Origin: Psilocybe cubensis
Lineage: Eukaryota
Reading direction: 5' to 3'
DNA length: 64,000 nt
NCBI GenBank assembly: GCA_017499595.2
Contig: CM038998.1
Coordinates: 124,001-188,000 of the forward strand
The translations under genes and the position numbers were made by a program. Numbering within the stretch: the first letter of the stretch is position 1; every line of letters begins with the position of its first letter. The notes under the pieces were generated by a model. That model saw nothing but the letters and a program-made list of their open reading frames with translations. It ran no database searches and was not told the origin of the DNA. This document shows, piece by piece, positions 23,315-64,000 of this stretch.

Positions 23315-23379
23315 TCCTACTGACATCTCTGGTTGGCTGCCACTTCACTTAGGCTACTTCTACAACTGTTTCACCTCCG

Positions 23380-30415: not shown

Positions 30416-31099
30416 GATAAGAAGAATTTGTTTTTGGTGATGGTGCGTGTTTTATCTCTTTTTTTTTCCTTTTCTTTTTTTTACTTCTTTCTCTATGTGC
30501 GTGTTTTTATTGACATTGACAGTCTTTTTTTTTTCAATAGGATACCTTCCTGGACACGGAACCCGTACTGGGAGAGTTCACAGAGGAGGATCTCGAGCAG
30601 GAGCAGGATACCTACCAGAAGCCGCAGACGGACGCGGACCGCACGGATGGCGAAGGGTACGAGACAAACACGGCGCCGTCGCAGTCGCGCAGCTCGTCGA
30701 TACGCATGGTACAGAGTCAGAGTCAGCTGCAGCAGGGACAAGGGCAGGACTGAGTCAGCAGGTGCCGGTGCAGCAGGTATCCAAACGGCAAACGCGCGTT
30801 AATTTGCCTCTAAAGGTGCTGACGACGCTTGTTTGGTAATAAAAAAAATGTTGTTTCAAGCTTCATGAAATAACATAGGCCACAGATGTCCGCGAATGTT
30901 AAGGAGTTTTATTATTCAGAAATGAGATTATGAGTCTTCAATGAGTATGATACAAATATAGCGAATCAAATGGTAAAATTCAGGGATATATGTACAATAA
31001 TACGAAGCGATAGCGATAAACCGAAAGCAACAAGAAAGCAACAAGAAAGCAACAAGAAAATGAAGAAAAGATAACAACAAGAAAAACCCGCCGGGGCGC

Positions 31100-39200: not shown

Positions 39201-39547
39201 GCCTCACACTTCTCGACTTGATGCGGGCAAAGTTACCCAATGCAGAACTGGCCTTTCTTTCTGCCTGTCATAGCGCAGCAGGCGACTCTCATACACCCAA
39301 CGAGAACATTCACTTATCAGCGGCGCTGCAATTCTGCGGGTTCCGAAGTGTGGTGGGAACGCTATGGGAGATGCACGACGAGGATGGCCCTACCATATCA
39401 AAAGGGTTCTATGACTACATGTTCCGGAATGGACCCATGGCTGATTTCAAGGACTCAGCAGAAGCATTGAATGTCGCTGTTCGGACAATGCGGAAGAATG
39501 GGGTTCCACTTGAAAGATGGATAATGTTTGTGCACATTGGGGCATGA
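36300..39547 (+). CDS. TPR-repeat + CHAT (caspase/HetF-like) protease
   Basis: About 11 repeats of ~44 aa (PPGHP.R..SL.NLA..L..RY..G..DDLEEAI); CHAT motifs RIWWCPT..LPIHAAG, VHFACHG (catalytic H), AFLSAC (catalytic C), GFRSVVGTLW, W..FVHIGA. Short first exon from ATG 36300 with intron 36358-36416 is inferred. Confidence 0.93.
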
Positions 39548-43179: not shown

Positions 43180-44196
43180 ATGGCACCCGAAAAATCATCT
43201 ACATATGTTATACTGTCAGTAACGCATCATTAGTACCATTGAGCTTGGACTAACCGCGACATCTTTTTCAGCGTAATGGGGTCTACTGGCGCAGGAAAAA
43301 GCACTGTAAACTTTGTGCCTGATTCAACATATTTGATTGATGAATTAAACAGTTCGCCAGTTTGTAAACGCCGTTAGCGGGAAAGCCCAAGCGACCGTAG
43401 GCCATGAAATCGACGCCTGTACAAAAAATGTTCAAGAAGTCACAATCGATGATCCAGATATATTGAAATCAATGTACCCGCAGAATGCGCGCCTACACAT
43501 CGTCGATACGCCTGGGTTTGATAGCTGCACGAAGGATGACGAGGAAAATCTCAAAACGATTGAAAAATGGCTGAAAGAATCGTAAGCTTTCACTGATCTA
43601 CTTCGATAGAGAAGTTAATTGTTTCAAGGTACGGTCTGGATGCCTTACTCGGTATCATATATCTTCAGGACATTTCCCTCGCCCGCTGTAACGGGACCGC
43701 GAAACGAAACTTGCAGATGTTTAAAAATCTCTGTGGCAAAAAAGCTCTCCGAAATGTCGTATTCGGATTGACGAAGGGAGGTCGCGTCAATGATCCAGAG
43801 CTGCTGAAGACGCGTACGGAGTCCTTCAAGCACACAGAAGGTCGCCACACAAAAGGCGAAGGGGTCGAAGCTGAAGTCTTCCATGTTCCAGATGTCAATT
43901 CCACAGAGCACTCCAGGAAGGTCGTTACACATTTGCTAACCTGCTATTGCAGGAGCATTGTTCTGCATATACAGAACGAGTTCATCCAGAAGAGAATACC
44001 TGTCCCTAACATCAAGGCAGGTCAAGAGCTTTCCATGACCATTAAACAACTTCTCGATGCCCAAAAACGATACTCACAATTCTCGACTGCAACTAACCTT
44101 GAAGAAGCTAGGCAGGCGACAAATAGCTTATCCACGCAGTTGAAGAAATTAAAAGTTCCCCTCAGCAAACGCATTCTTCGATTTTTTGGATTTTGA
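43180..44196 (+). CDS. AIG1/GIMAP-like (TRAFAC) P-loop GTPase, copy 1
   Basis: VMGSTGAGKST micro-exon 43272-43305; VGHEIDACT; IVDTPGFD; GIIYLQDIS; C-terminal coiled coil and LKVPLSKRILRFFGF. Confidence 0.9.
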
Positions 44197-44616
44197 ACTG
44201 TCGTCGAGTACTATAACTTTATTCGAATAGAAACTTTTGCTATACCCACCTAAGTAAAAGCAATCTTCCTTTTTTCCGTGCCTTGGATCTCTTCTATACA
44301 ATCAGGTTTATTACTGCCGATTTTTTCGACCTATGTTTAACCGTCTATCCTCTCAATACTGGTGTGCTCAACCACGTTGTCAGTGACATCCGATTAGATC
44401 CCACCTCACTATCGGTGAGTCTCCCCGGTCCATCCTCAATGCAATCGCGTGTCGTGACATCTTCGATACGATCTCATTGGCTTTAATTACAAGCTGCTTC
44501 ATACATATCACCCATCTATTCCATATGTTTCTGATAAAGACTCCACTTCATTGAATCCGCTCATCGAACCCTTTTCTCAACACACTTGGCCTACCTGTGC
44601 AGTGACGTCCTTGGAG

Positions 44617-46283
44617 ATGGATATTCTAATACTGTTGGTGTAACTCCGCTATATTTCTTCATGGATACACTAACAGAGAAGATCCAGCGTTGTCGGTGAA
44701 ACTGGTTGCGGAAAAAGCACTGTGAGTCTATCCACTCTGTCAGAATCGCGAACCTTTGTCTCACATACAACATATAGCTTATCAATTTAATCACCGGGAC
44801 TGATACCATGGAAGTCGATGACTGCCCCGAATCTTGCACCATGATAATCAAGAAAGTCGTGGTCAACGCGACCATCATGAAACAATTTCCACAATTTAAT
44901 GGACACCGCGTCCTTCTGGTCGACACGCCTGGTTTCAACAGAACGGAAGCAAGCGATAGCGAGACGTTAGTGCAAATAAAAGACTGGTTTACAGGTCTGT
45001 GAGTACTCTGCAACTCCGGAACGCAGTAAACTCACTCCTTTCAAGGCCTAATGGTTGCGAGCTTGGAGGAGTTATATTCCTGCACGACATATCAAACGAT
45101 CGAGTCACAGGGATTAATTTCGTAGGAGACTCCATAAGCAGGGAATTTGCAACCCTTAGCGTCGTCCTAGGGTTTACCAAAGGGGCAAAGATTTCATCAC
45201 AGAAGATTACGCATAGAATCGATAACTTAAAAGAAGGATATTGGAAGGATGTGATTGTTAACGGGGCGATTGTCGAGAGGATCGATCACCGCAACGACTC
45301 GGAGAGTGCGAGAGCTGTGATACAAGCAATATTGAGAGCATACCGTAGGTTTTTGTTTGACCCCTGCGAAGTTGAGCATAATCGGCTAACTTGTATTAAA
45401 TTAATAGTCGACAAGTGTGCCCGAAAGATAGTAATACCGTGAGTGGATTTTGTGTGCATTCTTGGCCTGAATCGCTTCCATGATGTACATTAACTTTTTC
45501 GTTTAGAGTTGTAGGCATGGCAGGCGCTGGAAAAAGTACCGTGAGCTCTCTCATTCTATTGTCGACCTACATCTCTCGCGATGGTTCTAAAATATATATT
45601 ACTAGCTTATCAACACAATTCTTGAAACACAGAATGCGGAGGTCAGACGCGACAATGGTAAAACATGTACAAGGGAAACCAAAGATTATACGAGCAATAA
45701 TATCTTCTGGTACCACAGAAGCTGTATAATTCACAGTGTGGTTTTTGTGGACACTCCTGGTTTTGTTGACCCCATCGCCTTTGATGCGACTGTACACAGC
45801 AAAAGCACAGAACATGCTGACAAATTGTACGTCTCCGACCCATTGTCTTCTTTACTGTCTTAATTGATACCAAAAAAAATTAGAGCCGCTGCTGGGTTTG
45901 ATTTCGGGGGCGTTATATACGTCCATGACCTCACTTCGGAAAACGTTCCAGATGCCTGGAGCATTTTCCTCTACTTATTCGAGAAGTATAAATCCAGGGG
46001 CGCGAGTAATATTGCGATCGTAGCCACAAAAGGAGGAAACTTGCGCGATACTGCGACTTCAACACAGCGGTTGAAGACGTTGGAGAAAAATCAATGGAAA
46101 CAATTCATTCTGCGAAATAGCCAGGTTTTTGAGGTAGAGAAACTAGGCCACCCTTCAATCCAGGCGCGCGAAATAGTCGATGCAATTCTGGAGCGCTACC
46201 AGCCCACTAGGAAAAGTAGTACGGATAATGGGTCCACAAGTCTATGGGCTTGGTTAGTAAGCCTTCTGATGATTAAAATTTAG
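44617..46283 (+). CDS. Tandem double-domain AIG1/GIMAP-like GTPase, copy 2
   Basis: Domain 1 VGETGCGKST, LVDTPGFN, GGVIFLHDIS; domain 2 VGMAGAGKST, FVDTPGF, GGVIYVHDL; no stop between domains after splicing; C-term LWAWLVSLLMIKI. Start uncertain. Confidence 0.8.
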
Positions 46284-46452
46284 AGAAATACGTTTCTGTA
46301 GGTCAGGTTGATGCACCGTTAATTTTCATTATACCGCGCTGGATGCGAGTCTATTTTGAACATGGTTCGTTGGTATAGGATATTTTGATATTCAGCATCT
46401 ATGCTTTGCGGCCTTTCTGACGTTCGGGCGCTCACGCTGAGTTTCGTGGATG

Positions 46453-46862
46453 CAAATTGTAAGCGCGACCGCGATTGATTAGAAGCGGGATATTGGTGAG
46501 TTGCAAGAAGAGGAGGCGAGTTGCCGTACATTGTCGTGTGAATAGTTGGATTGGGAGTGTAGAGAATACTAGGCAGTCAGGGTAAAGCAGAAAAATAAAA
46601 GTGAAACACACTCATAACGAATACGACGAGTCGATTCGATCTTTTCTTCTTTCTTTCCAGATTCAGTGATTTCTTCTGGATTAAGGGTGCCAGGTGTCAG
46701 CCAGGAAGCAAAGCTGAAGGGAGACGAGACAAGAATCAGAATCGGAATCTTTGCGCTGTACAGCCAGTGCGACGCGTTTTGCGTATTACTATTAGTCAGC
46801 CAGTGACGACGTTGAGATTACGTCCGGATTTAGTATGTTGCTCTCGGGCTCGGGCCATGCAA
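46453..46862. pseudogene. Duplicated CCT3 5' end/first intron/promoter (start codon deleted); marks a ~4.1 kb tandem duplication
   Basis: Homologous to 42355-42819 (shared actcataacgaatacg, gagacgagacaagaatcagaatc, cagccagtgcgacgcgttttgcgtatta, gctcgggccatgcaa). Confidence 0.85.
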
Positions 46863-47413
46863 TGGTAAAGCGTTTGCAACTCCAAACGTCTCTTGGTCTC
46901 GAATCCAAACATTCTATCTCTCAGCGCGGGTTTTGATCTAACTGGGTTGCTCCAGTTTATAGTATCTTCCCTTTTGGTTCTCGGTTCACGCTTCCGGCCA
47001 AACGCATTGTGACAGTGGCACGGTGATTGACACAGATTTAGGCCACTGCAGCGTACAACTCTCTATATCTGAGATATACAAACTTCTTCTGCCTAAATAG
47101 CATGGTAAGGCTCAAGGGGCCGGTGGTCTAGGCATAACTGACACAGCGACTCGTGTTATTCATTCCGGACTAGCATGTGTTGTATTAATATCCTCTTCAC
47201 AGATGAATCGATTGCGGATTATGCATGTTGACATCCAATTGAATCGCAAAAACGATGCCGCATCGTGTTTCTGAAATGGGACCAATGCTTACACCGCGGC
47301 GACCACCCCAAAGTCGTTTCTCCAGCTGTCACACCACAGTCGCGTCTTTTGTCATTATATACGTCTGTGGAAAGCACTATACTGTTCGCACATCATCTTT
47401 AACTGTCTGAACA

Positions 47414-48422
47414 ATGACATCCAACCAATCGCGCACACTTGTCATACTGTTAGTAAGAATTCATTGACGCCATTGGGTTTGGACTGACCACTCAATCTCA
47501 GAGTGATGGGGTCGACTGGGGCGGGGAAAAGCACCGTAAGAGTTTTGCCTCATTCACATTATCTGACCGAATAAATCAACATTTTTCAAGTTCATTAACG
47601 CTGTCAGCGGAAAGACCAATGCTACCGTAGGGCATGATATGCAATCATGTACTGTGCATATTCAGGAAGTACAAATTACGGACCCCGAAATAACGGGTAT
47701 CGTTGCTATACCCAATCCATCCTTGCTTATCATCGATACGCCTGGTTTTGATGACACCAAAAAGGACGACGTGGTAATTCTCACCAGGATTGCGAAATGG
47801 CTCAAAAAATCGTAAGCTTTGAACTCACCGCGCTCCTATCAAAATTCTGATTATTTCAAGGCACGGTATACACTCTTTAGTCGGCGTTATATATCTTCAC
47901 GACATTTCCCTCGACCGCTTCACCGGCACAGCGAAACGAAACTTGGACATGTTTCAAAAGCTCTGTGGAAAAAAAGCCTTCAAAAATGTCGCAATCGGAA
48001 TGACGAAAGGAAGTCGCGTCAACGATTCTGGGGCATTGCAAAGACGCACCGAATCGCTGAAGCGCACACAGTGGAACCATATGATAGCAGAAGGCGTTAC
48101 AGTTTTTTCTATTCCTGAAAAGGACTCTAGGGAGGACTCCAGGAAGGTCGTAAAACATTTGCTGTCCAATTACAGTCAGAGCACCGTGCTCCAGATACAG
48201 GACGAGTTGATCAAGAAGAAGTTACTTGTACCTAATACCGAAGCTGGCCTAGAGCTTTCCGCTACCATCAAGCGACTCATTGACGCCCACAAGCAGTACA
48301 CTCAATTTAGTACTGCATCTAACCTCGAAGAGGCTAAACGGGAAATCGAGAGGTTATCCAAGCAGCTGAAGGAATTGAAAATTCCCCTCTCCAAGCGCAT
48401 TATGAGGTTTTTTGGGTTTTGA
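47414..48422 (+). CDS. AIG1/GIMAP-like GTPase, copy 3 (paralog of copy 1)
   Basis: VMGSTGAGKST, VGHDMQSCT, IIDTPGFDDT, GVIYLHDISLDRFTGTAKRNL, C-term LKIPLSKRIMRFFGF. Confidence 0.92.
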
Positions 48423-49019
48423 GGTATTTTACCCTTCATTTCGGTTTCGTAAGATCTGCACGTGTAGCAAAGCCTTCATTAAAATATTACTATAGTTTGT
48501 AAGAAAAACCTGCATACATTTTCATATCTTTATCCAACCTCGTTCAGCTACAGGCCACTTGATAAATACTCAAATTGGATATATTTGGCAGGTAATCGAT
48601 CTGTTTTTGATGTTCGCCATCGGTCGGAGAAACGCGTTAATCCACATGCTAAATCAGTAGTTGAGGCGTTGAGAATCCTCAAAGGAGGTAGGTCTGTTTC
48701 ACTCACCCTTTCCTGACAAGATTACCCCAGCTGGTAAATACAAACTAGAGACTATCTCGTGGTATCACCGTTAAACCTCGAGATTTGACCACATGCCCTT
48801 CGATGCGAAGTAACGAAGAGTATTATTGGCGTTTGATTGTAACACTCATCATCCTGAGGTAGCCGTGAATTTAAAATGGCGGTAGCAGTGCTTTGATGAA
48901 ATCATTCGCTCTTCATCGTCTCCCGTCGACCTATAATAGGTGTCTACCTCTGCAAACCCGCCTCCAGCATTCGGAAAACATTTATCGCTACTTTTGTCTA
49001 CTTGTAGCCTTCTTGCGAG

Positions 49020-50653
49020 ATGGATATTATGATACTGTTGGTGGGATTTTATGGTTATAATATTTAGACTAGCTGACGAAAAAAAACTAGCGTTGTTGGT
49101 GAAACTGGTTCAGGAAAAAGCACAGTATATCCAGCCAAATTTTCGGGTTTATGGACGTATTCTCATGCGTATCATGCAGCTTATCAATTTAATCACTGGC
49201 ACTGACACCATGGTAATCGGTGACACTACCGACTCTTGCACGACGATAATCAAGAAAGTTATGGTCGACCCCAAATTGATCAGCGACTTTCCACACCTCA
49301 ACGGACACAGCGTCTTTCTGGTCGACACCCCCGGATTCAACAGGGTGGAAGCAACCAATGAAGAAACAATACGACAAATTAAGGCCTGGTTTAGTAGTCT
49401 GTGAGTACACCATGACTGGGAAGACGTAAGCATTGAACAACCACACAGGCCTGGCCACTGCGAACTGGGAGGGATTATCTTCCTTCATGACATATCAAAT
49501 GATAGAGTTATAGGAGCCAATTATCTAGCAGATGCTACTTGCAAGGAGTTTTCGCCCGTCAGTGTCGTCCTAGGATTCACAAAAGGGAAAAGCGTTTTAT
49601 CACAGTTCGAAGAACGAGTTCGCATATTAAAAGATGGATATTGGAGGAACATTGTCTCTAATGGTGCAATCATCGAGAAGATCCATAGTTCTGACGATAT
49701 CGGAGGTGCCAGTGCAGTACTACAAACAGTACTGAAAACATACAGTAAGCAACCTTTAAAATTTCTATAACCTAAAATCCATCTAAACTCTGCATCAGTA
49801 AGCAAATGTGCGCGTAGAATCGTAATACCGTAGGCGTCTTTTTTCGTTTTCTATTTGCGCCTCGCTTCCATACAGTATAGCTAATTGACTGTAGAGTCGT
49901 GGGTATGGCAGGTGCTGGAAAAAGTACCGTAAGTAATGGTACCACATCTATCCTCTGTAAATGTACTAAATCTTCAAATAAAAGCTTATCAACACCATAC
50001 TAGAAACCACAGACGCAGTGGTTGGGCACGACCAGGCGATATGTACACGGAGAATCAGAGAACACACCAATCGAAATCTTTTCTGGTACCACAGAAGCTG
50101 CATAATCCACAGTGTCGTGCTTGTGGATACTCCGGGATTCGATAATCCCGTCGTTAGCGATACGACCGTACGTCGACAAATTGAAGAACATGTTGGGAAT
50201 TTGTGAGTCATGGTGATAAATATATGAGAACCTTTGTTAAAATTTGACACACGTAGATCAGCCCCTGAATGCGATTTTGGGGGAGTAATATACGTGCAAG
50301 ATCTTACATCTGACTACGACTGGAGAAATGCCCTTCACAACCTCTTGATATCCAAACGCAATATCCAGGAAAACGTTGCAATAGTAGCAACCAAAGGAGG
50401 GAGGTGGGGAAACAACGTCGAACTGACACAACGTTTGGAATCTTTGAAGAAATATCAGTGCAAATATCTCATTCTTCAGAATTGCCAGGTCTTTGAAATT
50501 GGAAGCACCCTCCACCCCCCAATCGAGGCGCGAAGAATAGTTGATGCAGTTCTGGAACGTTACAAACCAACCACAAAGGTTAGCAGTGTTGAGGCGGACA
50601 CTAGCCTGAGGACCTGGTTCGCCAATCTTCTGAGGATTACATATAGCAACTGA
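49020..50653 (+). CDS. Tandem double-domain AIG1/GIMAP-like GTPase, copy 4 (paralog of copy 2)
   Basis: VGETGSGKST, LVDTPGFN, GGIIFLHDIS; then VGMAGAGKST, VGHDQAICT, LVDTPGFDN, GGVIYVQDL; C-term LRTWFANLLRITYSN. Confidence 0.82.
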
Positions 50654-51403
50654 GGCGATATTGTAAGCCTGCCCTCATCACAGACCCACCCCTTTTACAC
50701 ATACACCTGACGCGTCGAGATCACGCTTCATAATTCCCACGTCACATGATTCGCTACACACAAAATTTCGCTTCACTTCGTTCCTTGTCTCTTACCACAT
50801 CGAACGAAGGTATGTAGTTTACCGTATGCACAAATGATCTCTTGCCACACGGGGATATAAATTTTTTTCATTTTATTTCCTGTTTTACTGTGTACAACCT
50901 ACTGCCAGTTAACCTGCTCAGGAAACCGGGGCGACCTTCCACGTACCAACGCACTGGCGACAAACATCAAGTGATCTAATGATTGGATTCCATCGTAAGA
51001 TACACTTATGAACCTGCTTTATGCGTTACTGGTCATCTTCCATCGTGCATTGCCATGTCAATGCCACGTTCATTGGGTGCGGAAGCAGAGCGTAGACCTA
51101 GACAGATTTAGATCTACGCATCCGGGAAGGTATGACATCGAACCAAACTTACCCAAATCTTCCGGTCATCTTGCAGATAATGAGCAAGCCAATATCGACG
51201 TCGTATCTGGAAAACATGCGGATGTCGCGAGCTTCCTTCCAAAAGGGGCGCATGTGACTAGCGGCCGGATTATGCCCTGGATTCAATATTCTGTGTAACA
51301 CGAGGATCGAATCTGGCACAGAACACATTGACCTTTGTATGTTGCTATATCATTCTGTACACCACCGTTTACAGCTCACTCTTTACGAATCTTTAGGCAA
51401 ACT

Positions 51404-52743
51404 ATGCCCCGTTTTTTCATCCGAAATCTTTTTTCTTCACTCTTAACCAATCAAAACAAAAGGACCAACGAAAACACCCCTGAGGTCAGTGATGGCACAA
51501 ATGTATTTTTCGTTGTTCTGATAGACTATAGTGTCTAAATGTCACTGAACCATTCGACGCCAATAACGCACAGAAAATTGTAATTCCGTACGTTCAGCGC
51601 TCTACAAGCTCGTTGGCTTATTGTGAACACTTTTGCGTGATAACAGCGTGATGGGACCAACAGGCGCAGGAAAAAGTACAGTGCGTACATGCTTTGATAT
51701 ATCGGTGGTTCCTCTGCACTCACGAGTATTTTGGCATCCCTCAGTTAATCAATATGGTTTGCGGCGACGAAAAGGTGGTCGTTGGGCATGATATTCAATC
51801 ATGTACCAGCGTTGTCACACCAGTAGAAATCGACGTCAATCCGTTCCTACATCAGTTTCCTTGGCTAAAAAATCGAACATTATTGTTGGTTGACACTCCA
51901 GGCTTCGATGACACCTACCTAGGAGATATGGAGATTCTTACCATTATTGCGGATTGGCTAAAATCTGCGTCAGTTTCGTTAGTTAGTTCGATTTTATGGA
52001 ACACTTACATTCGTATTAGCTACAAAGACCACGTCCTTGGAGGTGTCCTATACCTCTACGATGTGACTAATGATCGATATACAGGCAGTGCGCGGAAAAA
52101 CTTGGACATTTTTCGTGGTATTTGCGGACAAGACGCCTTTGATATCGTTGTGCTTGGGGCTTCGAAGGGGGGTAGAATCTCTCCAGAACTGGGACAACAA
52201 CGTTTAAAAGCGTTGAAGGACACTCATTGGAAAGAATTCATTTCCGAAGGCGCAGAAATTGTAACCATTGACGACACTAGGCAATCTGCTAAAAATGCAG
52301 TCGCTCAGGTCCTTCACAGCTTCACCAAGAAAAGGGAGGAGTCGAAAAAGCAGGCCGCTATCAAGACACCAGCCGTTACGCGGAAAGAACAGAAGGTAGT
52401 TTGTAAACTTCACTATGACTGTTCTTCTCACTGCATATTTATTCCATTCAAGGGTATTTTAAACTCGGAGGATCATATAACGGCACTCGCCATTCAAGAA
52501 GAACTCGTTGACAAAAAATTCATCGTTCCAGAAACATCGGCAGGGAAGGAACTACGGGTCACCCTTCGTGAAGTTCTTGAATACGAAAAGAAATACTTGG
52601 AATTGGCCAAAAGGGACGGTGATGAGGATGAAGAAACAAAACAGGAACTCCAGAACGCCTTGGAGCAGATAAGAAAACTCTCTAAGCAGCTGGAACAGCT
52701 AAAAGTTCCATTGGGTCGCAGATTATTATCCATCTTACGCTGA
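51404..52743 (+). CDS. AIG1/GIMAP-like GTPase, copy 5
   Basis: VMGPTGAGKST, VGHDIQSCT, LVDTPGFDDT, GGVLYLYDVT..RYTGSARKNL, coiled coil, LKVPLGRRLLSILR. Confidence 0.9.
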
Positions 52744-53423
52744 GCAGTGAGTATCTCCAGGACATTCTTGTCTCTGTTGAATAGCTTGCCTTCTCAGGGA
52801 TAGCGATATATTACCATGGCTTCAATTCGCGTTTAGAAAAGATTTTTTCTTCATCTTGTACTCTTTTGTAATTATTTGTTCAACCGAAATCTGGGAGCAT
52901 AAGTAATTCTTTCGAGGTCGATGTCTACGGAATTGGTTTCTGACTCGATAAATATCTTATTCTAAAGAAAGACCAGATTTAGCTTTCATGCAATGCTACC
53001 GTTCAACCTCGTGCAGCCAACCATCATATGTTAGCTTTATATACAATGCAAGCGCAAGGCAGACTCGTGGCATAGTCCAATATTTGATGATCGTGTAATT
53101 CAGATACACTGCACTCTGATTCGCAATTATGTGATCTCACTGAAACCGTAATACGGAATCTCCGGAAATATACTACTGAACTGGTTTTAGTGAACGACAA
53201 TTGGTACCGAGGGTTGCAATGTGTTCGATGAATCGATCCTTACTTAAGTTTCTAAGCATCATGATTCCATGCAACGTTTAATTGAGCAGCATATTTAGGT
53301 GGATCTCCGCGCTTTGTTTGCAGCGTCGCACATTGTGTTCAGACACGCCGTTGGTCTCCTCCTTTCCTTCTGCAATTTCTCTCAACAATATCTTTAAAGC
53401 AGGCCTCGAAGACAAGGACTACA

Positions 53424-54344
53424 ATGCAGAAACCTTCCATCTTCAAGTCCATGATACGAGCGATTAAAATCTTTACCTTCTTAGGCAAGGTCTGCGTTTA
53501 GAATTTCGTGTATTCAAACTTGCTCTGAATCGTAACCTATAGGATTCAACGCATGATTCCTCAAGTTTTCCAGCAATAATGTGCGTCTGCACTATTCTGA
53601 TATACACAAAGGTCACTCACGGTATCGGATGATATCCATTGTGCAGTGTCCTGGGAATACAGGGAAGCGGGAAAAGCTATGTATGCAATAAAATTGCACA
53701 ATTACTGCATTTCTCCAATCGCTGACCTATCTGAGGTCTGTTTTTCAGTTTATAAATAAACTCACCTGCGATACCAATGTCGTCGACATTTCCGATGATA
53801 TCAACCATCGTCAACTACAACCGTCAAAGACTCCCGTTAACGCTCCATCACTCAAGCAATATCCAAACATCCCAGAGCCCCTCTACATTGTTGAGGTTCC
53901 AGGGCTAGACGATTATACGAGGAGTGATGAAGACATTCTGTCTGAGCTCCAGACATGGCTTGAGACGGAAAAGTAAGCAGCAAAAGCTTACCACGTAAAA
54001 ATAATGACTGATTATATATGTGTGTAATTACGGGAATTAGGTGCGTATTGAAAGGGGCAATATACCTTTACGACATATCTCGAGACCGATATCCGGTTTC
54101 TACCAAAAGAGCCGTCGATGACTTCTTTAGAAAATGGATCGGCCAAGACGCGCGTGGAAAGGTTGTCCTTGGAATCACGAAGTCCGATATAGTCACCGAC
54201 GAAACACTCAAAAACAAACGTCTGGAAGCCCTCAGAACCAATTTTTGGAAGGGAATAATGAAACGATACGAGATCAGAGAGATTATCGACACATCCTCCC
54301 CCAAGGCGTCAGCTGACATTGTGAAGATTCTTCTCAGGTCGTAA
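53424..54344 (+). CDS. Divergent, C-terminally short AIG1/GIMAP-like GTPase, copy 6 (possible pseudo-GTPase)
   Basis: VLGNTGSGKSY; G3 reads EVPGLDD instead of DTPG; GAIYLYDISRDRY; lacks the switch-I SCT and the C-terminal coil. Confidence 0.7.
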
Positions 54345-55536
54345 TTTGATTTGGGAAACTTGCAAAACGACGTTTTACATGCCAGTTAATTCAGCAATCT
54401 CAACTTCAGATTGGAGTTAAATACATTGATAATTCCAGGCTTTATTTAAAGTGAGAATGCAGCGGAAGTACCTCTGTTTGTTTCCGGCTCGCCGCGAACA
54501 TGTTGGCGATACTTGGTTAAACTACCTAATTCGTGCCATTATTGGTAACGATGCACCAAAATATTATGCTCATATTACCATTAGAGAAACGAGTTGGGGT
54601 GCACGCAAACGTGTTACTGTATACCCTAATTGAATTCGTCATTACCGCTTCGTGGGGATATGTAAGTGTGGATGACGGAACTAAGATTCAGAAGAATATA
54701 TATTGGTGTGAGCTCTTGGTGACCTCCCCATTTTTATTCCTTTATAATTACAACGTGCGTATGTGCAAATGATTGAATTGTCCATCGTCCCCATTACTCA
54801 TCAAAGTACCATTGTCGATGTAAAAGAGCGGCATTACGGCACAGCTCAGAGTCAGAGTTGACGGAGTTTGAACTTTAAAATCGCATCGTTGAACGTGCAA
54901 GGCCTCGTCGTTTGATGTCGTGCACATAGGTCAGTGTATATCGAGTGCTTGAGATTGTGACATGGGAAGCTGATAAGGTCAAAAAAGCTAGATTATTTCG
55001 GAGTTCTCCACACCAATTGAGAAGCCTACTCATCAAGCGACAGCACCCCCTACACGATGCTTTGCCCAACGTGTCAAGGCTGATGGTGAGGCACTTATCT
55101 AGGTCCGAGAACTCAGCGAAGAGCTTACGGTACATTTTCTCGAATCTTGTCTTTGCCAGAGACAAGCAGTCGATGCTAGACATTGTTTCCTCAGGCACAG
55201 TGTGCCAGAAGTCACCACGTTGAAGACAAGACCGGAAAACATCCCTCCGCTACCTCACATGTCCACAGCGAAACTAAATCCACAAAGAAGGGATACGTAC
55301 TTTCCTGGAGCGACTTGCGTCAAGTTTTCAGGGTTTAATATTGTCCCTGATGCCTGATGATATGTGCTCTGAACATGCATGTTGCATGAGATGCCATGTA
55401 CATCGCTAGAACCATTTCCCGCTGCTTCCCGAATCTCAGTGACGTTCGGAACCGTTGGCACGATGATTCTTAACAAATATCCCCCACATATACATGAACA
55501 CTGTCACCCCCGTGCCACTTCCTACTATCTGCTCCG

Positions 55537-58500
55537 ATGGAAAAAACGGAGGAGCTTGGGCACTGGAATACCGCCTGTGAGCAATCTTCCGAGCAGTCAT
55601 GAGTACTAAAACCGCCATTTGTACTGATTATGACGTTCTAGCTTGTGTCCACGATACAGCAAGTACTGGGAGAAACCTTATTGTATGTATTGATGGAACG
55701 GACAATCAATTCGGAGACAAGGTATATAGTATAACTCTTACTACTCCAGAATTCTTCAGTTTGATGTTATTATCCGCGCCTAGAACACCAATGTTATCGA
55801 ACTATATAATTTGATCCTAAAAGGAGTGGAGCATAATCAACGGACATGGTACAATAGTGGTATCGGTACCTATGTACGCCCATCATCATGGCTACGATCG
55901 CTGGGGAAGTATATATCTCATAAGATTGATTCTGCTGTGGCATGGTGTGTTGTTTTGATTAATGCGTTTGTCGATTTTACAATTTTATTCCCAGGAATTT
56001 TGAAAAGACAATACTAGGTGCTTACCGATGGTTATCAGATAACTATGAACCTGGTGATCGCATATTTCTCTTTGGTGAGATTTTCCAATCCATCAGGCCG
56101 CCATTCAACAGCATTAAAATTGCGTCTATTACTACTAGGATTCTCCCGTGGGGCGTTTCAGGTTCGAGCCCTATCAGCCATGATTAACAAGGTGTGATAC
56201 AATATGCTATTAAATGAAGTAAAACCGAACCACTTGAACAGGTTGGCTTGATACATAAGGGGAACGAAATGCAAATCCCATTGTCAGTGTTAGTCCAACG
56301 AGCTATTATGGCGCGCGTTAAATAGTTTACCTTTCAGTGCATACGAGCTCTACAGGAATAGCGACAGCGGAACTACGACTGACATAGGTTTGCGCGACGC
56401 TTCTAAAACAACTAGGGCTGCCCGGTTCAAAAAAGCATTCTCGGTCGACGGCGTTAAAGTTCACTTTGTCGGGGCATGGTGAGTGTTTACCTGACTGATA
56501 TCAACCATCATATACTCACTGTGACGAACATAAGGGACACTGTTTCATCCATAGGTTTTACGCGAAGAAAAAAAAACCTTCCTGAGACTGTTGACGGAAT
56601 GAAACATGTTTGTTTTTTTCGCCATGCACTAGCACTCGATGAAAGACGTGTTAAGTTTTTACCGGAATACGCTCACAGTGGTATGATTTCAGTTTGGACC
56701 AATGAATTGATTGTTGAGCTTGAATCTTCACAGGGAGATCCCCTAACAACATCCCCCAATCTGACGACGGCAAATGTGCTCCGCATGTATTGGAAGTATG
56801 GTTTGCTGGAACACACTCTGATATGTGAGGCCACTGTGCATCACCATAAGACGTCTACTAATTAGCTTCTCAGAGGGGGAGGCAGCGTTGAGAACCCAGA
56901 ACTGGACCGCAGCAGACCGCCGCTTCGATGGATGGTGTTCGAAGCTGGAAAGTTTGGCCTCCGTACCTCTGTATTTGATCAAGAGTTATCCCCACACCAA
57001 TTAACTGAAGTCAAAGAGTCTTTAACATTGAACTGGTGGCCTCTCGAGCTTTTGTGTTGTATGCAGACGTCACACTGGTGGAGGCATGTATCGTATATTT
57101 TGAACTTGACTTTAAGCTCATTGAATTTAGGCCGCATTTGGGGTCAGCACGCGTAATTCACGCCGGCCAGAAGATTCACAATACAGTCATTTTGACGGAC
57201 AAGTCCGACTATGTTCCGAAGGCTCTCCCCGAAGGCAAGGATTCTCAATTTTGGCAGCAACTTCGCAACGATTCAACCACCCAGTCTGATTGGCTGGAAC
57301 AAGACTTGTACAAGTACGCTGAGGGTTTAGTGCGTAAATATAGAGATACCCAAGACAAAGTCATATTAGTCATGTTGCGGCAAATCGCTGTATCGGGTGC
57401 GTTTCTTTTTCTACGAAGGCTCTTCGAAATTCATCAAGTTATCCAAAGGGGATGGCATTCAGGCAGTCTGTAAAAGTCTCTACCAATCGACATGCTCGGA
57501 CTCCGCTATTGAAGCGAGTTGCAAAGTTCTACTTGCTACACGAAACATACTTGATATGTGCCCTCGTGACTTGAAGAAATCCTACTCACCACAAATTCGT
57601 TCGCTCGTTTCAAACATGCTGTTGCGTGGATTAGTTTCTATAAAGGAGGCAAGGCAAATAATAGACAGTTGCGCTGACCGTGAGTCGGATTCATATTTTC
57701 AACCATTTATGCAGCTGATATGTTCGTCTTAATCTCCTAGCTTGTGTTCATGTGCTATCGGGACATGAAGGATCTGTATGCTCCGTGGCATTTTCTCCGG
57801 ACGGTGACGTCGTAGCTTCCTCCTCGCTTGATCGCTCGATTCGACTCTGGGACATTGAAACGGGGAATGAACTACGCTGTCTCAGTGATCCCGCAACTTA
57901 TATGACATCAGTCGCCTTTTTAGACGATGGAATTCGGCTAGTATCCGGGTCGTATAATGCAAAGATTTTCACCTGGAATACGAAGACAGGCACTATCAAA
58001 GGAGACCCGTTCGAAAAACATGCTGAGCCCGTCACATCTATATCTGCTTCCCCTGTCGGCACTCATTTGGTCTCAGGGTCTGACGATCAAACAATCCGTA
58101 TCTGGGATATGGCCACGGGGAAAACAAATTCAGATCCTTTTCAGCATTGCGACGGGAAAATTTTGTCTATAGCTTTCTCGCCTGATGGTCGGAGCATAGT
58201 TGCTGGTTCATCTAGCGGATCAGTTCAGATATGGGATATCAAAACTGGCAAATCTCTTACAGGGCAAATGACAGGACACACAGGCCCTGTCTGGTCCGTT
58301 GCTTTCAGCTTCGATGGAAACTTGGTGATATCTGGGTCCTCCGATAAATCAATCCGAATATGGAATGCGATAACAGGCCAAGGAGTAGGCAACCCGCTAT
58401 ACGGCCATAAAGGTTGGGTGAGCGCAGTGGCATGTTCTCCGTCGGATGAACGTGCCGTGTCCGCCTCCAGTGACTGTACAGCTCTTGTATGGGATACAAA

Positions 58501-58642
58501 ACAGATGCATCGTGTTGGAAAATTGATCGGACATAAAGGAAAGATAAACTCTGTTGCGTTTGGGAGCAATGGAAGAAGACTAGCCACTGGATCAAGCGAC
58601 AGGACTGTTCGAATATGGGATGTGACAAAGACTGGATTATAG
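55537..58642 (+). CDS. DUF2235 (Tle1-like alpha/beta-hydrolase) fused to a 7-blade WD40 domain
   Basis: [78 protein letters not shown] across exons; last exon 57752-58642 has seven GH..WD repeats. Confidence 0.88.
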
Positions 58643-59033
58643 ATAGCGATAACGTAGTTTCAACAACCCTACCGCTGGAAACGTTGAGATGATAAGGAAT
58701 GCAACATGTGGCAACGTGCTGCTAATCGAATCTATTCTTACCATCCACATTTTCTGTCAATGAAACTATGGAAAGCAGCATCTTTATTGAATAGCCGATA
58801 ATTCCTAAAGTTATTGTTTATGTTAATGACAAGTAGCCTTGAGGTTTCCACGAATCTGACGCATTCTACCAAAACACAATACAACAAACCCCCAGGTCAA
58901 CGAACGCACCTTTGGGCGGTAAACTTGCTTGCCTCACGCTGTCCCTTTTGCTCATTCAGCACTCTGGCTGGAGTTGACTGAGTATCGCTACTCCTACTGT
59001 TGTACCCACGCCATCCCAAAATCTCTCGTAACC

Positions 59034-60066
59034 ATGCCAAGGAAGCCAACGATAGAACCATACAAAATAATGATACCGTAGGCATTACTCATTCTTCCTT
59101 CAGTGCTTAAAAAACGTGTCATTCAGTGTTATGGGTGCTACGGGCGCCGGTAAAAGCAGCGTATGTGGGATGCAAAGGCCTAGCGGTGAAGGCTCCTTGC
59201 TCATATATCTATGACCAACAGTTTATCAACACGGTCTTGGGAACGGACTTCTTGAAGGTCGGGCATAAAATTGAATCATGTACCACCGAGGTTACAGCTG
59301 TCGAGGTACCTTCCGAGAAGCTTCAAGACATCCCTTTGCTATCAAATAAGGGAATCTATCTGGTAGACACTCCAGGATTTGACGACACTTATAAGGATGA
59401 CGTGGAGATATTGAAGAAAATTTCGAAATGGTTGAAAGCTTCGTAAGTGATTCTATACACATTTAGTGTTTCTGGAGCTTTTACACTTAAACTAGATACA
59501 ATGAATACGCCTTGGGGGGCGTAATCTATCTCCACGATATCTCTGTGGATCGGTATACAGGCACAGCGAAGCGAAACTTGCAATTATTCAACAAGCTTTG
59601 CGGAGAGTCCGAAAGCGTCCTCGACCGCGTTATTATTGGACTCACCAAAGGCGACCGTATTCAACCGGACGAGGAGATTAGGAGACGAGAGGGATTGAAG
59701 CAGCGTCAGTTTAACTATATGATGGCCAAAGGAGTGGAAGTCCTTCGTGTCTCCAGAGGTGACTCGAAAAGTGGTCATCCTAACACAATTCTTCGGAATC
59801 TTCTGCACAAACAGCAAACTCGTTTGATCTTAAGGATACAAGAAGAGATGGCGGTCATGAAAAAAGTTGTTTCCCAAACCGATGCCGCGCAGGAGCTTCG
59901 CCTGACTCTTGCTCAGGTTTTAAAACTCCAGAAGCAACGCTCTGAAGTCTCTGTCGCACCGACAGACCTCGAAGAAGCAAGGAGGCAAATACAAAATTTA
60001 TCAGATCAGCTCAAGGCTTTACAGATTCCATTCTCTCGTCGACTAAGAATGCTCCTTGGATTTTGA
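59034..60066 (+). CDS. AIG1/GIMAP-like GTPase, copy 7
   Basis: VMGATGAGKSS, VGHKIESCT, LVDTPGFDDT, GGVIYLHDISVDRYTGTAKRNL, LQIPFSRRLRMLLGF. Confidence 0.92.
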
Positions 60067-60620
60067 CGATGCTATCCCACTAATTTTTTCATACTCTTAC
60101 GTTTTGTAGGGTAGTAGTCATTACTTACACGCAGTTAGTGAATGACTCGCTATGATTACCAGAATATCACACATATCGACATTGAACTAACCAATCCTGT
60201 CTTCTATCCTACTCTTCGGATAATTACCCATGTGGTTTTGGAAACGATGCCGAAATTTCCTTGACTTTGGCCTGGTGATTTTGATCTAATTTTGCAGCGC
60301 AAATGGCACATGCGTAATAAGCATGTTTTTTTAAATACGACTCAAAATCCCAAAAGGTTCACTGGCGATCTTGAGATTGATACATCTCAGATATGGTATT
60401 TTATGATGCTATATTCGCTGCAGTCACCCTCTCCTACTTGTCTTTCTACTTAGCGCTCAACAACGCTACGCTGTGTGGGCATGATTAAATAACTCTCTTT
60501 ATGAGCACATAGCACCCGAATAATTGCTTCTACTAGTAGTACCTGCCCTCCGAGGTAGACATACGAGTCGCCGTCCACATCACCAAATTCTTGACTTCCA
60601 CAATCTATCTGAACCAACCG

Positions 60621-61612
60621 ATGGCGATGCCGTATGATCCCACTACTTCGACGAATGGTTCAAACCGTTCTAGCTGGGTATACGATTATGATACCCCAAT
60701 ATCTACCCAAAGCCCATGGTGCGATATTGTAATTCCGTATGCATTTATTCTAGTATTACCGAAGACTATGTAATCAATTTTCGCAGTGTTATTGGACCTA
60801 CTGGTTCCGGGAAAAGTACAGTACGTTGCTTTCTATATGTTAAACGAACTGATACGGATTTATAAAAAATATCCGACTAGTTTATCAACATGATTTTAGG
60901 TCAAGAAAGAATGAAAGTCGGCCATGAACAGGAATCTTGTACCTCTGTAGTCTCCGCTATTCCCGTCCTTCCGAGCAAGGCGTCAGTCTGCAACCGCATC
61001 GGAAACCGAAAAGTTCTCTTAGTTGATACCCCTGGATTTGACAACACTGAAGTCGACGACATGAAGGTTTTGGGTGAAATTACCAATTGTCTAGAGGACT
61101 TGTAAGTTCTGGAGCACATACTGTCCCAACCTTTACGCGTGCATTGAAATGATATTAGATACCGCCATCATCACACCATGGGAGGGATCATATACCTCCA
61201 AGATATCTCCCTTGACCGCGTATCTGCATCTACCATGATGTGCATCGACCTTGTTAACAAGGCATGCGGTATTCTTGGGCTGCGACATGTCGTCCTTGGA
61301 GCAACGAAATGCAACAGACTATCTGCTGCCGAGGTGGAAAACCGAATGATCCAGTTAAAAGGCGTTCACTGGAAAGGAATGATGGATATGGGAGCACAGG
61401 CATTTCCATTAGCTTACGACCCTCTGTCTGATGCCCAATCACTCCTCGACGCTGTTTTGGAACGTTTTGAACCTGGCGTCCTTCTAGATATTCAACGGGA
61501 ATTTCGGCGCACTAAAGACATCAGAAATACAAGCGTAGGCAAGCGCCTCATACAGTACATTAGCCGTTGGAAAAGGGCGTTTCAAAGAATATTCCAGTTT
61601 GATTTCTTTTAG
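60621..61612 (+). CDS. AIG1/GIMAP-like GTPase, copy 8
   Basis: VIGPTGSGKST, VGHEQESCT, LVDTPGFDNT, GGIIYLQDISLDR; C-term WKRAFQRIFQFDFF. Confidence 0.9.
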
Positions 61613-62721
61613 ATATTGGAATTCTGGGATTATTTTGTATCGCTTAGGGAAATGATGAAAAGAGTGGAAATAAATTGAAGTTTTAGCATCATGTTGCCGT
61701 ATGTCTTACGGTCGCTTCCAAAACAACCCTGAATTTTCTGCCCCAAAACGATAATCTTTTACAATGAGCGAATCAAATCTCCTACACCTCGCGGTGGCCT
61801 CAAGAAGGATACTGGGTCAATCTTGTACAGCTTGCGGTGGCCTCGTGTCCGAATCACTGCTACGAAGCGAACATAAAGCCTCGAGGTTGTGATCAACCGG
61901 ATGTGACAGATATAGAACAGATCATAGAACATGGAAAAGCACATCTTCCAGCAATAGAGTTCTTGTTCTGCTTACACGCTTCTGAGGCTCCGGCGTGTGG
62001 GGTGCAGTTTCAATGTGTTTTTTTACACCCATCGTAGAAATCAATTACGCCTGAACAACAAATTGCAAACCACCTCAATTAAAAGGAGTTAGCCGTAGTG
62101 ATAAGGAGTGTGATTGAATCTGAGGACATTTGACAGAATGGAAGGAGTGCAAACGACTGTCGCGATCAGGATACAGACACGCGTTCACGGTTTTGGGGTG
62201 CAACGGAGTTCATTAAACTACGACTACTGTCTCGGCAGCCCTGTTGTGTTCTCTACACATGGCGTTTCAAATGTCCCATATTCCCCTGGTCCTGGTCATG
62301 GATCGCTACCGCTATAGGAGGAGAGCTTCAGAAAAGCTTAACAACAAATGCCTCTCGGAGCTCATGCCTCAAAAGGTGGAACCAAAGAAAACTGGATGTC
62401 GAAAAAGTTGTTTATATCAGATTGATCATGACCATATGCTGATTGCGACAACGGCCTTCATAAAAGCTTCGTCACACATCATTTACCAAGGCACTCATTC
62501 AATCGGACTTTTTATCAAATGGTAGTGGAAAGAGTGTAGAAGATCTTCGAAGACGCACCTTGAATACTACATACCCCGTTCGGGTAACAGTGAGAGTTTT
62601 GCCACGACCACCGTTAGTTGTTGAATTATAATGGACCAGATGCGAAAGGCGGCGATGTCTGCTATTTGACCCATCCACCGTCAAAATCGCCACTCTCGAA
62701 AAACTACCATCACCACCTCCA

Positions 62722-63752
62722 ATGGCCCCAAACAAGATATCCGACCCTCTGAAGATAATGATTCCGTAAGTCTTGGACAGTATTTTTATGTTCCTGGGAT
62801 CAATACAAAATATTAAAACAGCATCATGGGAGCAACAGGCGCAGGCAAAAGTAGTGTACGTATCTGTAAAACATGTCATAGTCCTAAACGCCGTCTCACA
62901 ACATCAGTTCATCAACATGGCTATAGGAACGGAGAGCAGAAAGGTCGGGCACAACATCCAGTCTTGCACTTTCGAGGTTGCCGCTGTTGAGGTCCCTCCG
63001 TCGAAGCTCCAAGACATCCCATTGATATCAAATAGAAAGGTTTACCTCGTCGATACGCCCGGTTTCGATAACACCTACCACCACGACGTCGAAATCTTGG
63101 ATAAAATTGCAACATGGCTAAAAGAGTCGTAAGATAGTTTATTTATGTTCGAAGCGCACAAAGTGCTTACCACAGGCTCCAAAGATACAAAGAATTCACA
63201 ATATGTGGCGTAATATACCTTCACGACATCTCTGCGGATCGCTATACCGGGACAGCAAAGCGTAACTTGCAGATTTTCAGTAAACTCTGCGGGGACTCTG
63301 ATGGCGTTCTTGATCACGTCATCATTGGATTGACCAAAGGCAGCCGCATCCCATCAGATGAGGCCTTGAGGCGAGAAGAAGGATTGAAGGAGCGTCAATG
63401 GGGACATATGCTCTCCAAAGGCGTGGAGGTTTATCGCGTTTCGGAAGACGGCACGGAGATCCATCCAATAGACCTTCTTCGTAAGATATTCCAAAAGCAT
63501 CAGGAGCACCTAACTCTCAGGATTCAAGAGGAGATGACCATACAGAGAAAAATCGTTCCGCAGACGGATGCAGGCTTGGAAGTACGCCTGACCCTGGAAC
63601 AGATACTGACACTTTATAAAAAGCAATCAGAATATGCAGAAACCTCTGCAGATCGTAAGGCGATCGAAAAGAAAATCGAAATTTTGTCAAACCAGATCAA
63701 TACCTTGGAAATCCCTCTTTCGCGTCGACTGCGAATGCTCCTCGGAATCTAG
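62722..63752 (+). CDS. AIG1/GIMAP-like GTPase, copy 9 (close paralog of copy 7)
   Basis: IMGATGAGKSS, VGHNIQSCT, LVDTPGFDNT, GVIYLHDISADRYTGTAKRNL, LEIPLSRRLRMLLGI. Confidence 0.92.
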
Positions 63753-64000
63753 AGTGCGAAGTACGAGGATTTGGGAATTAGAGAGATAAGGGAGGTTGCC
63801 GATACGGTGGAAGGGGTTTGAGATGAGTGAACAGAGGCATTTGACGCCCTTGATTGCCATTCCCTACAGAAAAGGTACCCTTGTACGGACAAGATTAGAT
63901 TAGATTATCTATCCACTGTCAATCTCTTCAAACCCAAATTGATTGACAACAGGATGATCCAAAGAACAAAGAGTTGGGTGTAGGCAAGAGAGAATAGGGA

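Follow-up and report, generated by a model that had tools for sequence, protein, structure and literature searches.

A transcribed tandem array of diverged fungal GTPase genes, possibly of the AIG1/Toc34 type, in Psilocybe cubensis

Organisation and expression of the array

The DNA analysed here, hereafter called the window, is a stretch of 64,000 nucleotides (nt) from Psilocybe cubensis (contig CM038998.1, positions 124,001 to 188,000 of the forward strand), and it contains a tandem array of nine intact, co-oriented GTPase genes with 11 G domains, which we named g1 to g9. The array was defined by a motif scan together with splice-aware gene models. It lies on the forward strand between position 43180, the start codon of g1, and position 63752, the stop codon of g9, and these are exactly the limits given in an initial annotation of this DNA. 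A six-frame scan detected 11 Walker-A motifs (GxxxxGK[ST]) on the same strand, at positions 43279, 44695, 45514, 47509, 49098, 49902, 51654, 53654, 59134, 60794 and 62829, and a DTPGF sequence follows ten of them; the copy at 53654, which belongs to g6, has VEVPGL in its place. The 11 motifs and the nine intact open reading frames (ORFs) bear out the nine co-oriented genes and 11 GTPase domains in about 20 kb that the initial annotation had claimed. As listed in Table 1, the array is composed of seven single-domain genes (g1, g3 and g5 to g9) and two genes (g2 and g4) that carry two G domains in tandem.

Table 1. Genes of the GTPase array and neighbouring genes in the window (aa, amino acids)
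Feature	Position	Strand	Description
g1	43180..44196	+	285 aa, 4 exons; single-domain AIG1/Toc-like GTPase; splice-aware model
g2	44617..46283	+	418 aa, 8 exons; tandem two-G-domain, without coiled coil; paralogue of g4
g3	47414..48422	+	283 aa; single-domain; g1 duplicate; model
g4	49020..50653	+	415 aa; tandem two-G-domain; g2 duplicate; model
g5	51404..52743	+	353 aa, 6 exons; single-domain; corresponds to JR316_0000038; model
g6	53424..54344	+	221 aa; short divergent GTPase; 5' exon inferred
DUF2235-WD40	55537..58642	+	DUF2235 (type VI secretion system Tle1-like alpha/beta-hydrolase), unassigned middle region and 7-blade-type WD40; between g6 and g7; corresponds to JR316_0000040 (P0121)
g7	59034..60066	+	289 aa; single-domain; canonical G4 (TKGD); coiled coil and tail
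g8	60621..61612	+	274 aa; single-domain; longer N-terminus, truncated C-terminal region
g9	62722..63752	+	288 aa; single-domain; g7 duplicate (63%)
TPR-CHAT	36362..39547	+	ORF of 1061 codons with TPR_10 and CHAT (caspase-like); first Met at 36437; TPR_10 1.7e-38, CHAT 1.6e-30
CCT3 (T-complex protein 1 gamma)	40093..42478 (approximate)	-	Cpn60_TCP1 matches; best solved relatives TCP-1 gamma, 2.2e-72

The gene models were derived from frame-consistent GT..AG pairs and from the conservation between paralogues. They contain 38 introns of 47 to 68 nt, all of them bounded by GT..AG, and all nine models are free of internal stop codons. Three intron positions recur, with the same phases, in every G domain: a phase 2 intron immediately ahead of the V-x-G in the P-loop strand, a phase 0 intron right after GKS[TSY], and a phase 2 intron after the WLKxS helix. 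The 11 domain units that share these introns are only 25-63% identical in pairwise comparisons, which confirms the earlier description of common intron positions combined with strong divergence. When single exons of the window were compared to Pfam, only weak matches to MMR_HSR1, Dynamin_N and AIG1 were obtained, because the introns cut the G domain. For g5 and g6, one additional 5' exon was required to reach an ATG; the alternative that these two genes are start-less pseudogenes was rejected, since the added exon restores the ATG, and in g5 this exon is confirmed by the contig joints described below. It is also worth mentioning that seven of the 38 modelled introns have an AAG acceptor instead of YAG (43628, 45045, 47590, 47860, 49984, 52452 and 63184), and four of these acceptors (47590, 47860, 52452 and 63184) were confirmed by joints in run contigs.

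A coiled-coil region and a basic-hydrophobic tail are found at the C-terminal end of g1 (...KVPLSKRILRFFGF), g3, g5, g7 and g9, and the C-termini of g2, g4, g6 and g8 are shorter. Residues 61-353 of g5 (293 residues) are 100% identical to the public protein JR316_0000038 (P0001). The public model begins at an internal Met located past the P-loop, and the three 5' exons that include the Walker A motif (51404-51680) are missing from it; these three additional exons are backed by spliced contigs. Other database entries of the family may be truncated in the same manner, and automatic Pfam calls would be weakened by this.

Expression was assessed using contigs of two runs, X1 and X2, which we took, as a guess, to be RNA on the strength of their GT..AG-joined contigs. 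Exact GT..AG joints in these contigs match 12 of the 38 modelled introns (among the 15 joints listed, out of 45). They comprise all three introns of g3 and all five introns of g5, for which joints are present in both runs, as well as two introns of g8 and introns 2 and 3 of g9, the latter two including the AAG acceptor at 63184. Additional support comes from inexact matches. In g4, an X1 joint from 49820 to 49895, with 12 other letters between its two sides, lies near the modelled intron 49830-49894, and an X1 piece starts at 50257, which is the first position of exon 8. A nearby joint from 59077 to 59128 speaks for the first intron of g7, and a loose end at 61101 for the third one of g8; contigs of the spliced runs cover the 3' part of g1. 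For g6, X1 contigs have loose ends at 53403 and 54376, with depth in the bins between them. Over most of g2 (44468-45801), the cover in X1 and X2 is nil or nearly so, which is uninformative either way. Taken together, the array is transcribed and spliced, with spliced contigs backing the transcription of at least g1, g3 to g5 and g7 to g9, and with weaker cover for g6. Just upstream of the g5 ATG, at 51337-51400, the X1 and X2 contigs skip 62 nt with the non-canonical ends TA..CA and two other letters between the sides; this may be an intron of the 5' untranslated region whose borders are obscured by an indel between strains, or it may result from the assembly.

A third run, X3, yielded one 44.5-kb DNA contig that is colinear with the window over positions 43801-63800 and differs from it by 146 + 218 single-letter differences and small indels only. 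The whole array therefore exists in a second strain.

Conserved motifs, duplication history and distribution of the family

The consensus sequence of the family to which the array proteins belong comprises GPTGxGKSTFIN for G1, SCT in switch I and VDTPGFDDT for G3, followed by a box YLHRISDNRMxG...NLxMFxxLCG, by TTMW at the position of G4, and by a C-terminal motif LLIQxELVDxxKxLxETxAG (longer form LLIQxELVD...ETxAG...KxPxxRRLxxxFGF). In the window, G1 is present in all 11 domains, and the switch-I Thr and DTPGF in ten each. The degenerate copy is g6, in which G2 (the switch-I Thr) and the Asp of G3 are lost and G4 is canonical (TKSD). The Asp of G4 is missing from nine of the 11 domains, where TKGG, TKGS, TKGA, TKCN or SKGG is found, and it is kept only in g6 and in g7 (TKGD). 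Its absence is a trait of the whole family, as the consensus TTMW indicates, and it suggests that base specificity may be relaxed. The strongly conserved box between G3 and G4, YLH[DR]IS.[DN]R..G...NL..F..LCG, is spanned by the alignment to the AIG1 hidden Markov model (HMM), and it may be equivalent at the residue level to the conserved box of GIMAPs. The second domain of g2 is devoid of the Arg of this box.

Among the domain units, the closest pairs are g1/g3 (60% identity), g2a/g4a (59%), g2b/g4b (57%) and g7/g9 (63%), and it follows from these values that g1-g2 was duplicated as a block, giving g3-g4. At the DNA level, similarity between the copies is confined to exons. Nei-Gojobori estimates of synonymous divergence (dS) are 1.10 for g1/g3 and 1.17 for g2/g4, with a ratio of nonsynonymous to synonymous divergence (dN/dS) of 0.25 in both cases; for g7/g9, dS has reached saturation. 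We conclude that the copies are old and that, on average, purifying selection acts on them.

A tree of 91 rows was calculated by an IQ-TREE quick search, with support from the Shimodaira-Hasegawa-like approximate likelihood ratio test (SH-aLRT). The 11 window domains form one clade with P0010 of P. cyanescens and P0006 (SH-aLRT 96), the paralogue pairs have a support of 99-100, and g6 is the longest branch of the tree. The sequences of Agrocybe pediades form a separate clade (100) that holds both halves of one tandem protein, and the halves of other tandem proteins likewise group as each other's relatives. These genus-wise clades indicate that the family expanded separately in each lineage, and that tandem-domain genes arose more than once. 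The array itself grew by tandem and segmental duplication (g1-g2 to g3-g4, and g7/g9) inside one clade of the Psilocybe lineage. Of the birth-and-death cluster suggested earlier, the lineage-specific expansion is thus retained, and its time scale is deep rather than recent. Selection and strain comparison lend no support to the reading of the array as a conflict locus: the duplicates are old, with a dN/dS of about 0.25, and the second strain has a colinear array.

The same data bear on the view that the array is a remnant in decay, consisting of pseudogenes or of copies that drift neutrally. Such decay could be read into g6, with its lost G2, its lost G3 Asp and its long branch, into the G4 Asp missing from most domains, and into the lack of cover over most of g2 in two runs, uninformative as it is in either direction. 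We consider this view highly improbable, given nine stop-free models with canonical GT..AG introns, a dN/dS well under 1 and spliced transcripts, and given that the loss of the G4 Asp is family-wide.

Family matches at E<=1e-3 number 290, come from Agaricomycetes, Ascomycota and Mortierellomycetes, and are mostly annotated as "G domain-containing protein". A profile search over 1.84 billion representatives returned 20326, 9206 and 4393 representative clusters (50% identity) at E<=1e-3, 1e-10 and 1e-30, respectively, many of them with 2-5 G-domain stretches. As judged from locus tags, tandem runs of the same GTPase family also occur in other species. A scan of 30 long family members revealed, as fusion partners, a protein kinase in two, a ubiquitin-like domain in one, and a GAPDH N-domain in one, possibly a merged model; NACHT, WD40, TPR and ANK were found in none of the 30, and no Hint domain was found in Pfam scans of either the window or these members.

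Across fungi, the family counts its diverged clusters by the thousand and includes tandem arrays and forms with several G domains, yet it is unstudied; our full-text literature searches found no study on it, and no report of up-regulated AIG1 GTPases in mycelium. According to an excerpt of a survey of NOD (nucleotide-binding oligomerisation domain)-like receptors (NLRs) in Sordariales, an orthogroup with the same overlap of MMR_HSR1, RsgA, Septin, AIG1 and Dynamin_N was excluded there (10.1101/2024.11.26.625400). According to an excerpt of a review-type source, representative fungi such as yeast have, as far as known, no GIMAPs (PMC7053062). The MMR_HSR1 mentioned in a Podospora non-self paper was set aside, as it denotes ribosome-biogenesis genes and not this family. 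All in all, the family is real and large, and it represents an unstudied fungal variant of a GTPase type that is already known. At the least, the present analysis corrects public models that lack the P-loop and defines the family motifs, the atypical G4 included.

Classification and possible role of the array proteins

The classification was carried out mainly with P0007, a homologue from Gymnopilus junonius that is 42-46% identical to g3, g5, g7 and g9. This protein matches AIG1 (PF04548) over residues 15-146 with 34.8 bits (cut-off 27), and Septin (PF00735) with 22.4 bits, which is under the cut-off of 26.2; only one of the window exons, in g8, touches AIG1, with 17.6 bits and also under the cut-off. 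The initial annotation had proposed an HMM assignment between AIG1 and MMR_HSR1 or septin, and this could be achieved in part: Septin stays below its cut-off, and Pfam cannot separate AIG1 from MMR_HSR1. The family profile aligns with GIMAP7 over profile positions 12-301 (3.4e-7). A phmmer search of P0007 against PDB sequences was uninformative, its best row being a designed repeat protein, and PADLOC returned only weak matches at the level of the P-loop (LeoBC 3.5e-7, mad8 and LeoA).

The AlphaFold2 model of P0007 (predicted local distance difference test, pLDDT, 90.2; predicted template modelling score, pTM, 0.88) contains a G domain followed by helices at residues 225-252, 257-279 and 284-292. 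When this model was used in Foldseek, GIMAP7 was found first (3.7e-12), followed by Toc34, GIMAP2, GIMAP1, GIMAP5 and Toc33; ranks 1-30 are all occupied by GIMAP7, GIMAP2, GIMAP1 and GIMAP5 or by Toc34 and Toc33, and GIMAP4 (3lxx) stands at rank 39. A homodimer prediction for P0007 gave a score of 0.00, without a verdict either way. The tandem homologue P0286 was modelled with a pLDDT of 86.8 and a pTM of 0.77.

In the light of these results, the label GIMAP/AIG1-like that had been given to the array is partly right: the fold nearest to the P0007 model and the AIG1 matches in 44 of 68 full-length homologues speak for it, whereas the missing G4 Asp in nine of the 11 domains and sequences that are not AIG1-specific speak against it. 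The array proteins would be placed best in a distinct fungal branch near the AIG1/Toc34 ("paraseptin") TRAFAC GTPases, and not as plain members, because the modelled fold is nearest to GIMAP and Toc proteins, yet G4 does not conform.

A comparison with known GTPase systems leads to a similar picture. With the GIMAP/IAN proteins of vertebrates, plants, molluscs and corals, the fungal family shares the nearest solved folds, G1 to G3, helices or a coiled coil at a C-terminus that ends in hydrophobic residues, members with several G domains, tandem clusters and lineage-specific expansion; both also have a conserved box between G3 and G4, and the two boxes may be equivalent. The two differ in G4, which is (N/T)(K/R)xD in GIMAP/IAN and TTMW or TKGx in the fungal family, and in the C-terminal motif, which is the family's own; moreover, the fungal sequences are no closer to GIMAP than to Der or septins. 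The plastid import GTPases Toc34, Toc33 and Toc159, which act as G-interface dimers with an arginine, are the second-best structural neighbours (1h65, 3bb1 and 3def; Toc33 Z 15.9 over 191 residues), whereas fungi have no plastid, and the fungal proteins lack a transmembrane anchor of the Toc type and differ in their C-terminal region. Two G domains per chain, as in g2 and g4, are also known from EngA/Der, which occupy the top Foldseek rows for the P0286 tandem model. Nevertheless, no common two-domain arrangement was found in that comparison (TM 0.26-0.35, root-mean-square deviation 15-20 A; typically about 0.3 and 17 A), the KH domain was not found in Pfam scans of the window and of the long family members, and the fungal tandem forms arose independently within the family. 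Another fungal AIG1-like expansion is that of the AIG1-Hint proteins of Rhizophagus irregularis, one member of which was induced on co-inoculation of two isolates, according to excerpts of the two reports (PMC7490403, PMC8778642); these proteins are restricted to Glomeromycotina and are fused to Hint, which distinguishes them from the array family.

By analogy with GIMAPs and Toc34, the array proteins would bind nucleotide and form homo- or hetero-oligomers through the G interface, and the near-invariant Arg of the box YLH[DR]IS.[DN]R may be supplied in trans. Attachment to the surface of a membrane or an organelle would be provided by the coiled coil together with the conserved basic-hydrophobic tail at the C-terminus. 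In g2 and g4, an active first domain may be paired with a degenerate second one, in which the box Arg is lost, as a built-in regulatory partner. More generally, the paralogues, tandem-domain genes included, would regulate one another, and such mutual regulation would resemble that of GIMAP7 and GIMAP2.

We give about even chances to the following overall interpretation: the tandem array, old and transcribed, encodes fungus-specific AIG1/Toc34-type GTPases and has unrelated neighbours, a role as defence or stress scaffold being the likeliest. The most likely role by analogy would be that of an expandable membrane scaffold of the stress/defence type, as for GIMAP/IAN, and it is favoured because of the scale and the pattern of the diversification; an immune role of the array is plausible. 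A more specific version, which we put forward tentatively and hold to be clearly less probable than the general interpretation, sees in the family the fungal equivalent of the immune GTPases of animals (GIMAP/IRG-type) and plants (IAN), and a large, unstudied branch of fungal cell-autonomous defence. Under this version, arrays would supply sets of paralogues that regulate one another as hetero-oligomers on membranes, tandem-domain genes would be fixed heterodimers, the relaxed G4 would admit a nucleotide other than GTP, and the genus-specific expansions would track local antagonists. If the proteins indeed act like GIMAPs, they would offer a tractable route into fungal cell-autonomous immunity beyond NLR-like proteins, which is a debated question.

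Several points weigh against the overall interpretation. The classification rests on homologues that are 30-50% identical to the window proteins, and sequence alone does not single out AIG1, since among the 68 full-length homologues (E<=1e-3) all match MMR_HSR1 in Pfam, 55 match Dynamin_N, 44 match AIG1 and 35, weakly, match Septin. In comparisons of the family profile to the PDB, Der (2.9e-9), GIMAP4 (4.2e-9), septins and GBPs are tied at 1e-9 to 1e-7, and the exhaustive VIA-align comparison is likewise a tie between Era (Z 16.1), EngB (16.0), Toc33 (15.9) and GIMAP7 (15.9), with the longest alignment, of 213 residues, to GIMAP7. In the tree, the Psilocybe clade stands on a very short stem (0.023) and contains two long branches, g6 and g8. 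The equivalence of the box Arg with the arginine finger of GIMAP7 and Toc34 is presumed. Finally, oligomerisation, membrane binding, nucleotide preference and the role in defence are all predicted.

A role in cell biology or development is equally compatible with the evidence. In its full form, this alternative holds that the array encodes ordinary factors of organelle, lipid-droplet, septal-pore or vesicle dynamics or of fruiting-body development, duplicated for dosage or tissue use and without any role in conflict. It would account for the dN/dS of about 0.25, the nine intact ORFs, the colinear second strain and the transcription of at least g1, g3 to g5 and g7 to g9; in addition, the relatives Toc34 and septins are housekeeping machines, and no fusion to an immune module was found in the 30 long family members. 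It explains less readily the very high diversity of the family (4393 clusters at 50% identity and E<=1e-30), the genus-specific clades without 1:1 orthologues, and the varying multi-domain and tandem forms. Paralogues that are merely 25-45% identical within one array would also be unusual for conserved housekeeping factors. For the full alternative, our overall judgement is that it is rather unlikely.

Neighbouring genes and mobile elements

In the middle of the array, the initial annotation had placed a lipase-WD40 gene, and its presence, between g6 and g7, was corroborated by Pfam matches. PF09994 (DUF2235) is matched by three exon pieces with 22.5, 28.3 and 30.7 bits (cut-off 27; E 8.3e-5, 1.4e-6 and 2.6e-7), and WD40 is matched in the ORF 57719-58639 with an E value of 1.5e-69 over six stretches. 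The public protein P0121 contains GFSRG, WDTV and GTHSD, which we presume to be the catalytic motifs, with GFSRG as the nucleophile elbow. Joints near modelled introns (55576 to 55644 and 56824 to 56875) show that the 5' exons are spliced. The two public models of this gene disagree in length (765 aa and 708 aa), and both skip in-frame open stretches.

No NACHT or NB-ARC NOD module was found in this gene, and no Walker A motif is located on the forward strand between 53654 and 59134; P0121 and P0122 have only PF09994 and WD40-type domains among the Pfam families listed. In the absence of a P-loop or NOD module, the gene is not an NLR. Fungal NLRs of the NWD/HET-E type also have a C-terminal WD40 propeller, which serves them as a sensor, whereas here no NACHT or NB-ARC lies between the hydrolase and the repeats. 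Bacterial Tle1, a phospholipase effector of the type VI secretion system, has in common with the embedded gene PF09994 and GFSRG, and differs from it in that the product of the latter is cytosolic, eukaryotic and without a secretion context. When the middle region was searched among longer proteins, only the two P. cubensis models matched. The DUF2235-WD40 family is itself large: 3098 of 8000 scored candidates reach E<=1e-3, and Agaricomycete genomes contain dozens of copies each. It forms tandem runs of its own in Agrocybe pediades (D9613_012540-012553 and D9613_011521-011583), three of its genes lie on one Galerina contig, and adjacent DUF2235 locus tags were seen in three further species. 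Excerpts of two publications describe DUF2235 as a lipase-like toxin domain, fungi included (PMC3482391), and list it among the domains up-regulated in Armillaria confronting Trichoderma (PMC10269595). Our full-text searches found nothing joining DUF2235, WD40 and fungi.

The TPR-CHAT gene reported about 3.6 kb upstream of the array was recovered as well, and its ORF ends 3633 nt before g1. CHAT (PF12770) is matched over residues 787-1060 with 107 bits (cut-off 24), and FACHG and SACHS are both present. The His of FACHG and the Cys of SACHS are presumed to form the catalytic dyad of CHAT, and the ORF looks catalytically intact on its sequence. It has no match in PADLOC, and full-text searches found nothing on the CHAT domain in Agaricomycetes. 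The gap between this ORF and the array is filled by CCT3, an essential housekeeping chaperonin gene on the opposite strand, which the initial annotation had not noted.

These neighbours had been interpreted, together with the array, as one integrated locus for non-self defence or cell death, in which WD40 and TPR sensors would act with membrane GTPases and lipase or protease effectors. All three kinds of gene are indeed located within 27 kb and on one strand. Likewise, fungal proteins of the NLR type make use of WD40 and TPR repeats and of CHAT, the last being among the NLR effector profiles in an excerpt of one study (10.1101/2022.03.16.484565), and the response of DUF2235 in Armillaria would fit the same idea. 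Transposons are abundant in the left part of the window, and the locus tags 0000038 and 0000040 are low numbers on a contig of 4.68 Mb. Against a coupled locus stand the position of CCT3, which parts CHAT from the array on the other strand, the DUF2235-WD40 protein without a NOD module, and the 30 long family members, in none of which NACHT, WD40, TPR or ANK was found.

The recurrent linkage of GTPase and DUF2235 genes predicted for other species was not found either. Of the ten other species that occur in both lists, none has a listed GTPase and a listed DUF2235 gene on one contig, in a crude test that compared the best 120 of 290 GTPase matches with the best 120 of 3098 DUF2235 matches and told contigs apart by their length, a limit that counts against our own view of the neighbours. 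In the chromosome-scale assembly of Agrocybe pediades, none of the 20 listed D9613 DUF2235 copies lies on the contig of the GTPases D9613_003446, 003448, 003468 and 003470. Sharing of upstream 7- and 8-mers among the ten genes does not exceed that of random windows. A coupling of the three kinds of gene is not supported by these results, and we regard the integrated defence locus as improbable; the DUF2235-WD40 and TPR-CHAT genes are better described as neighbours from other expanded families, not as parts of one system with the array.

The left half of the window contains, in addition, two inverted arms at 9979-12344 and 18555-20920, which are 2366 nt each, perfectly complementary and separated by 6210 nt. 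Between them lies an ORF of 632 codons (14078-15973) for which Pfam gives no match; an ORF that contains a GQNGVGKS P-loop is present in each arm, and a third, partial copy of the arm (691 nt, 99%) was found at 22631-23321. This structure resembles a transposable element of recent origin, or else a duplication made in the assembly. The same half is rich in remains of mobile elements, all on the reverse strand (1119-2852, 29287-30451 and 6761-8134): a Transposase_21 (tnp2-type) ORF, fragments of an endonuclease and reverse transcriptase resembling those of long interspersed nuclear elements (LINEs), and an ORF of 458 codons with a KOW motif.

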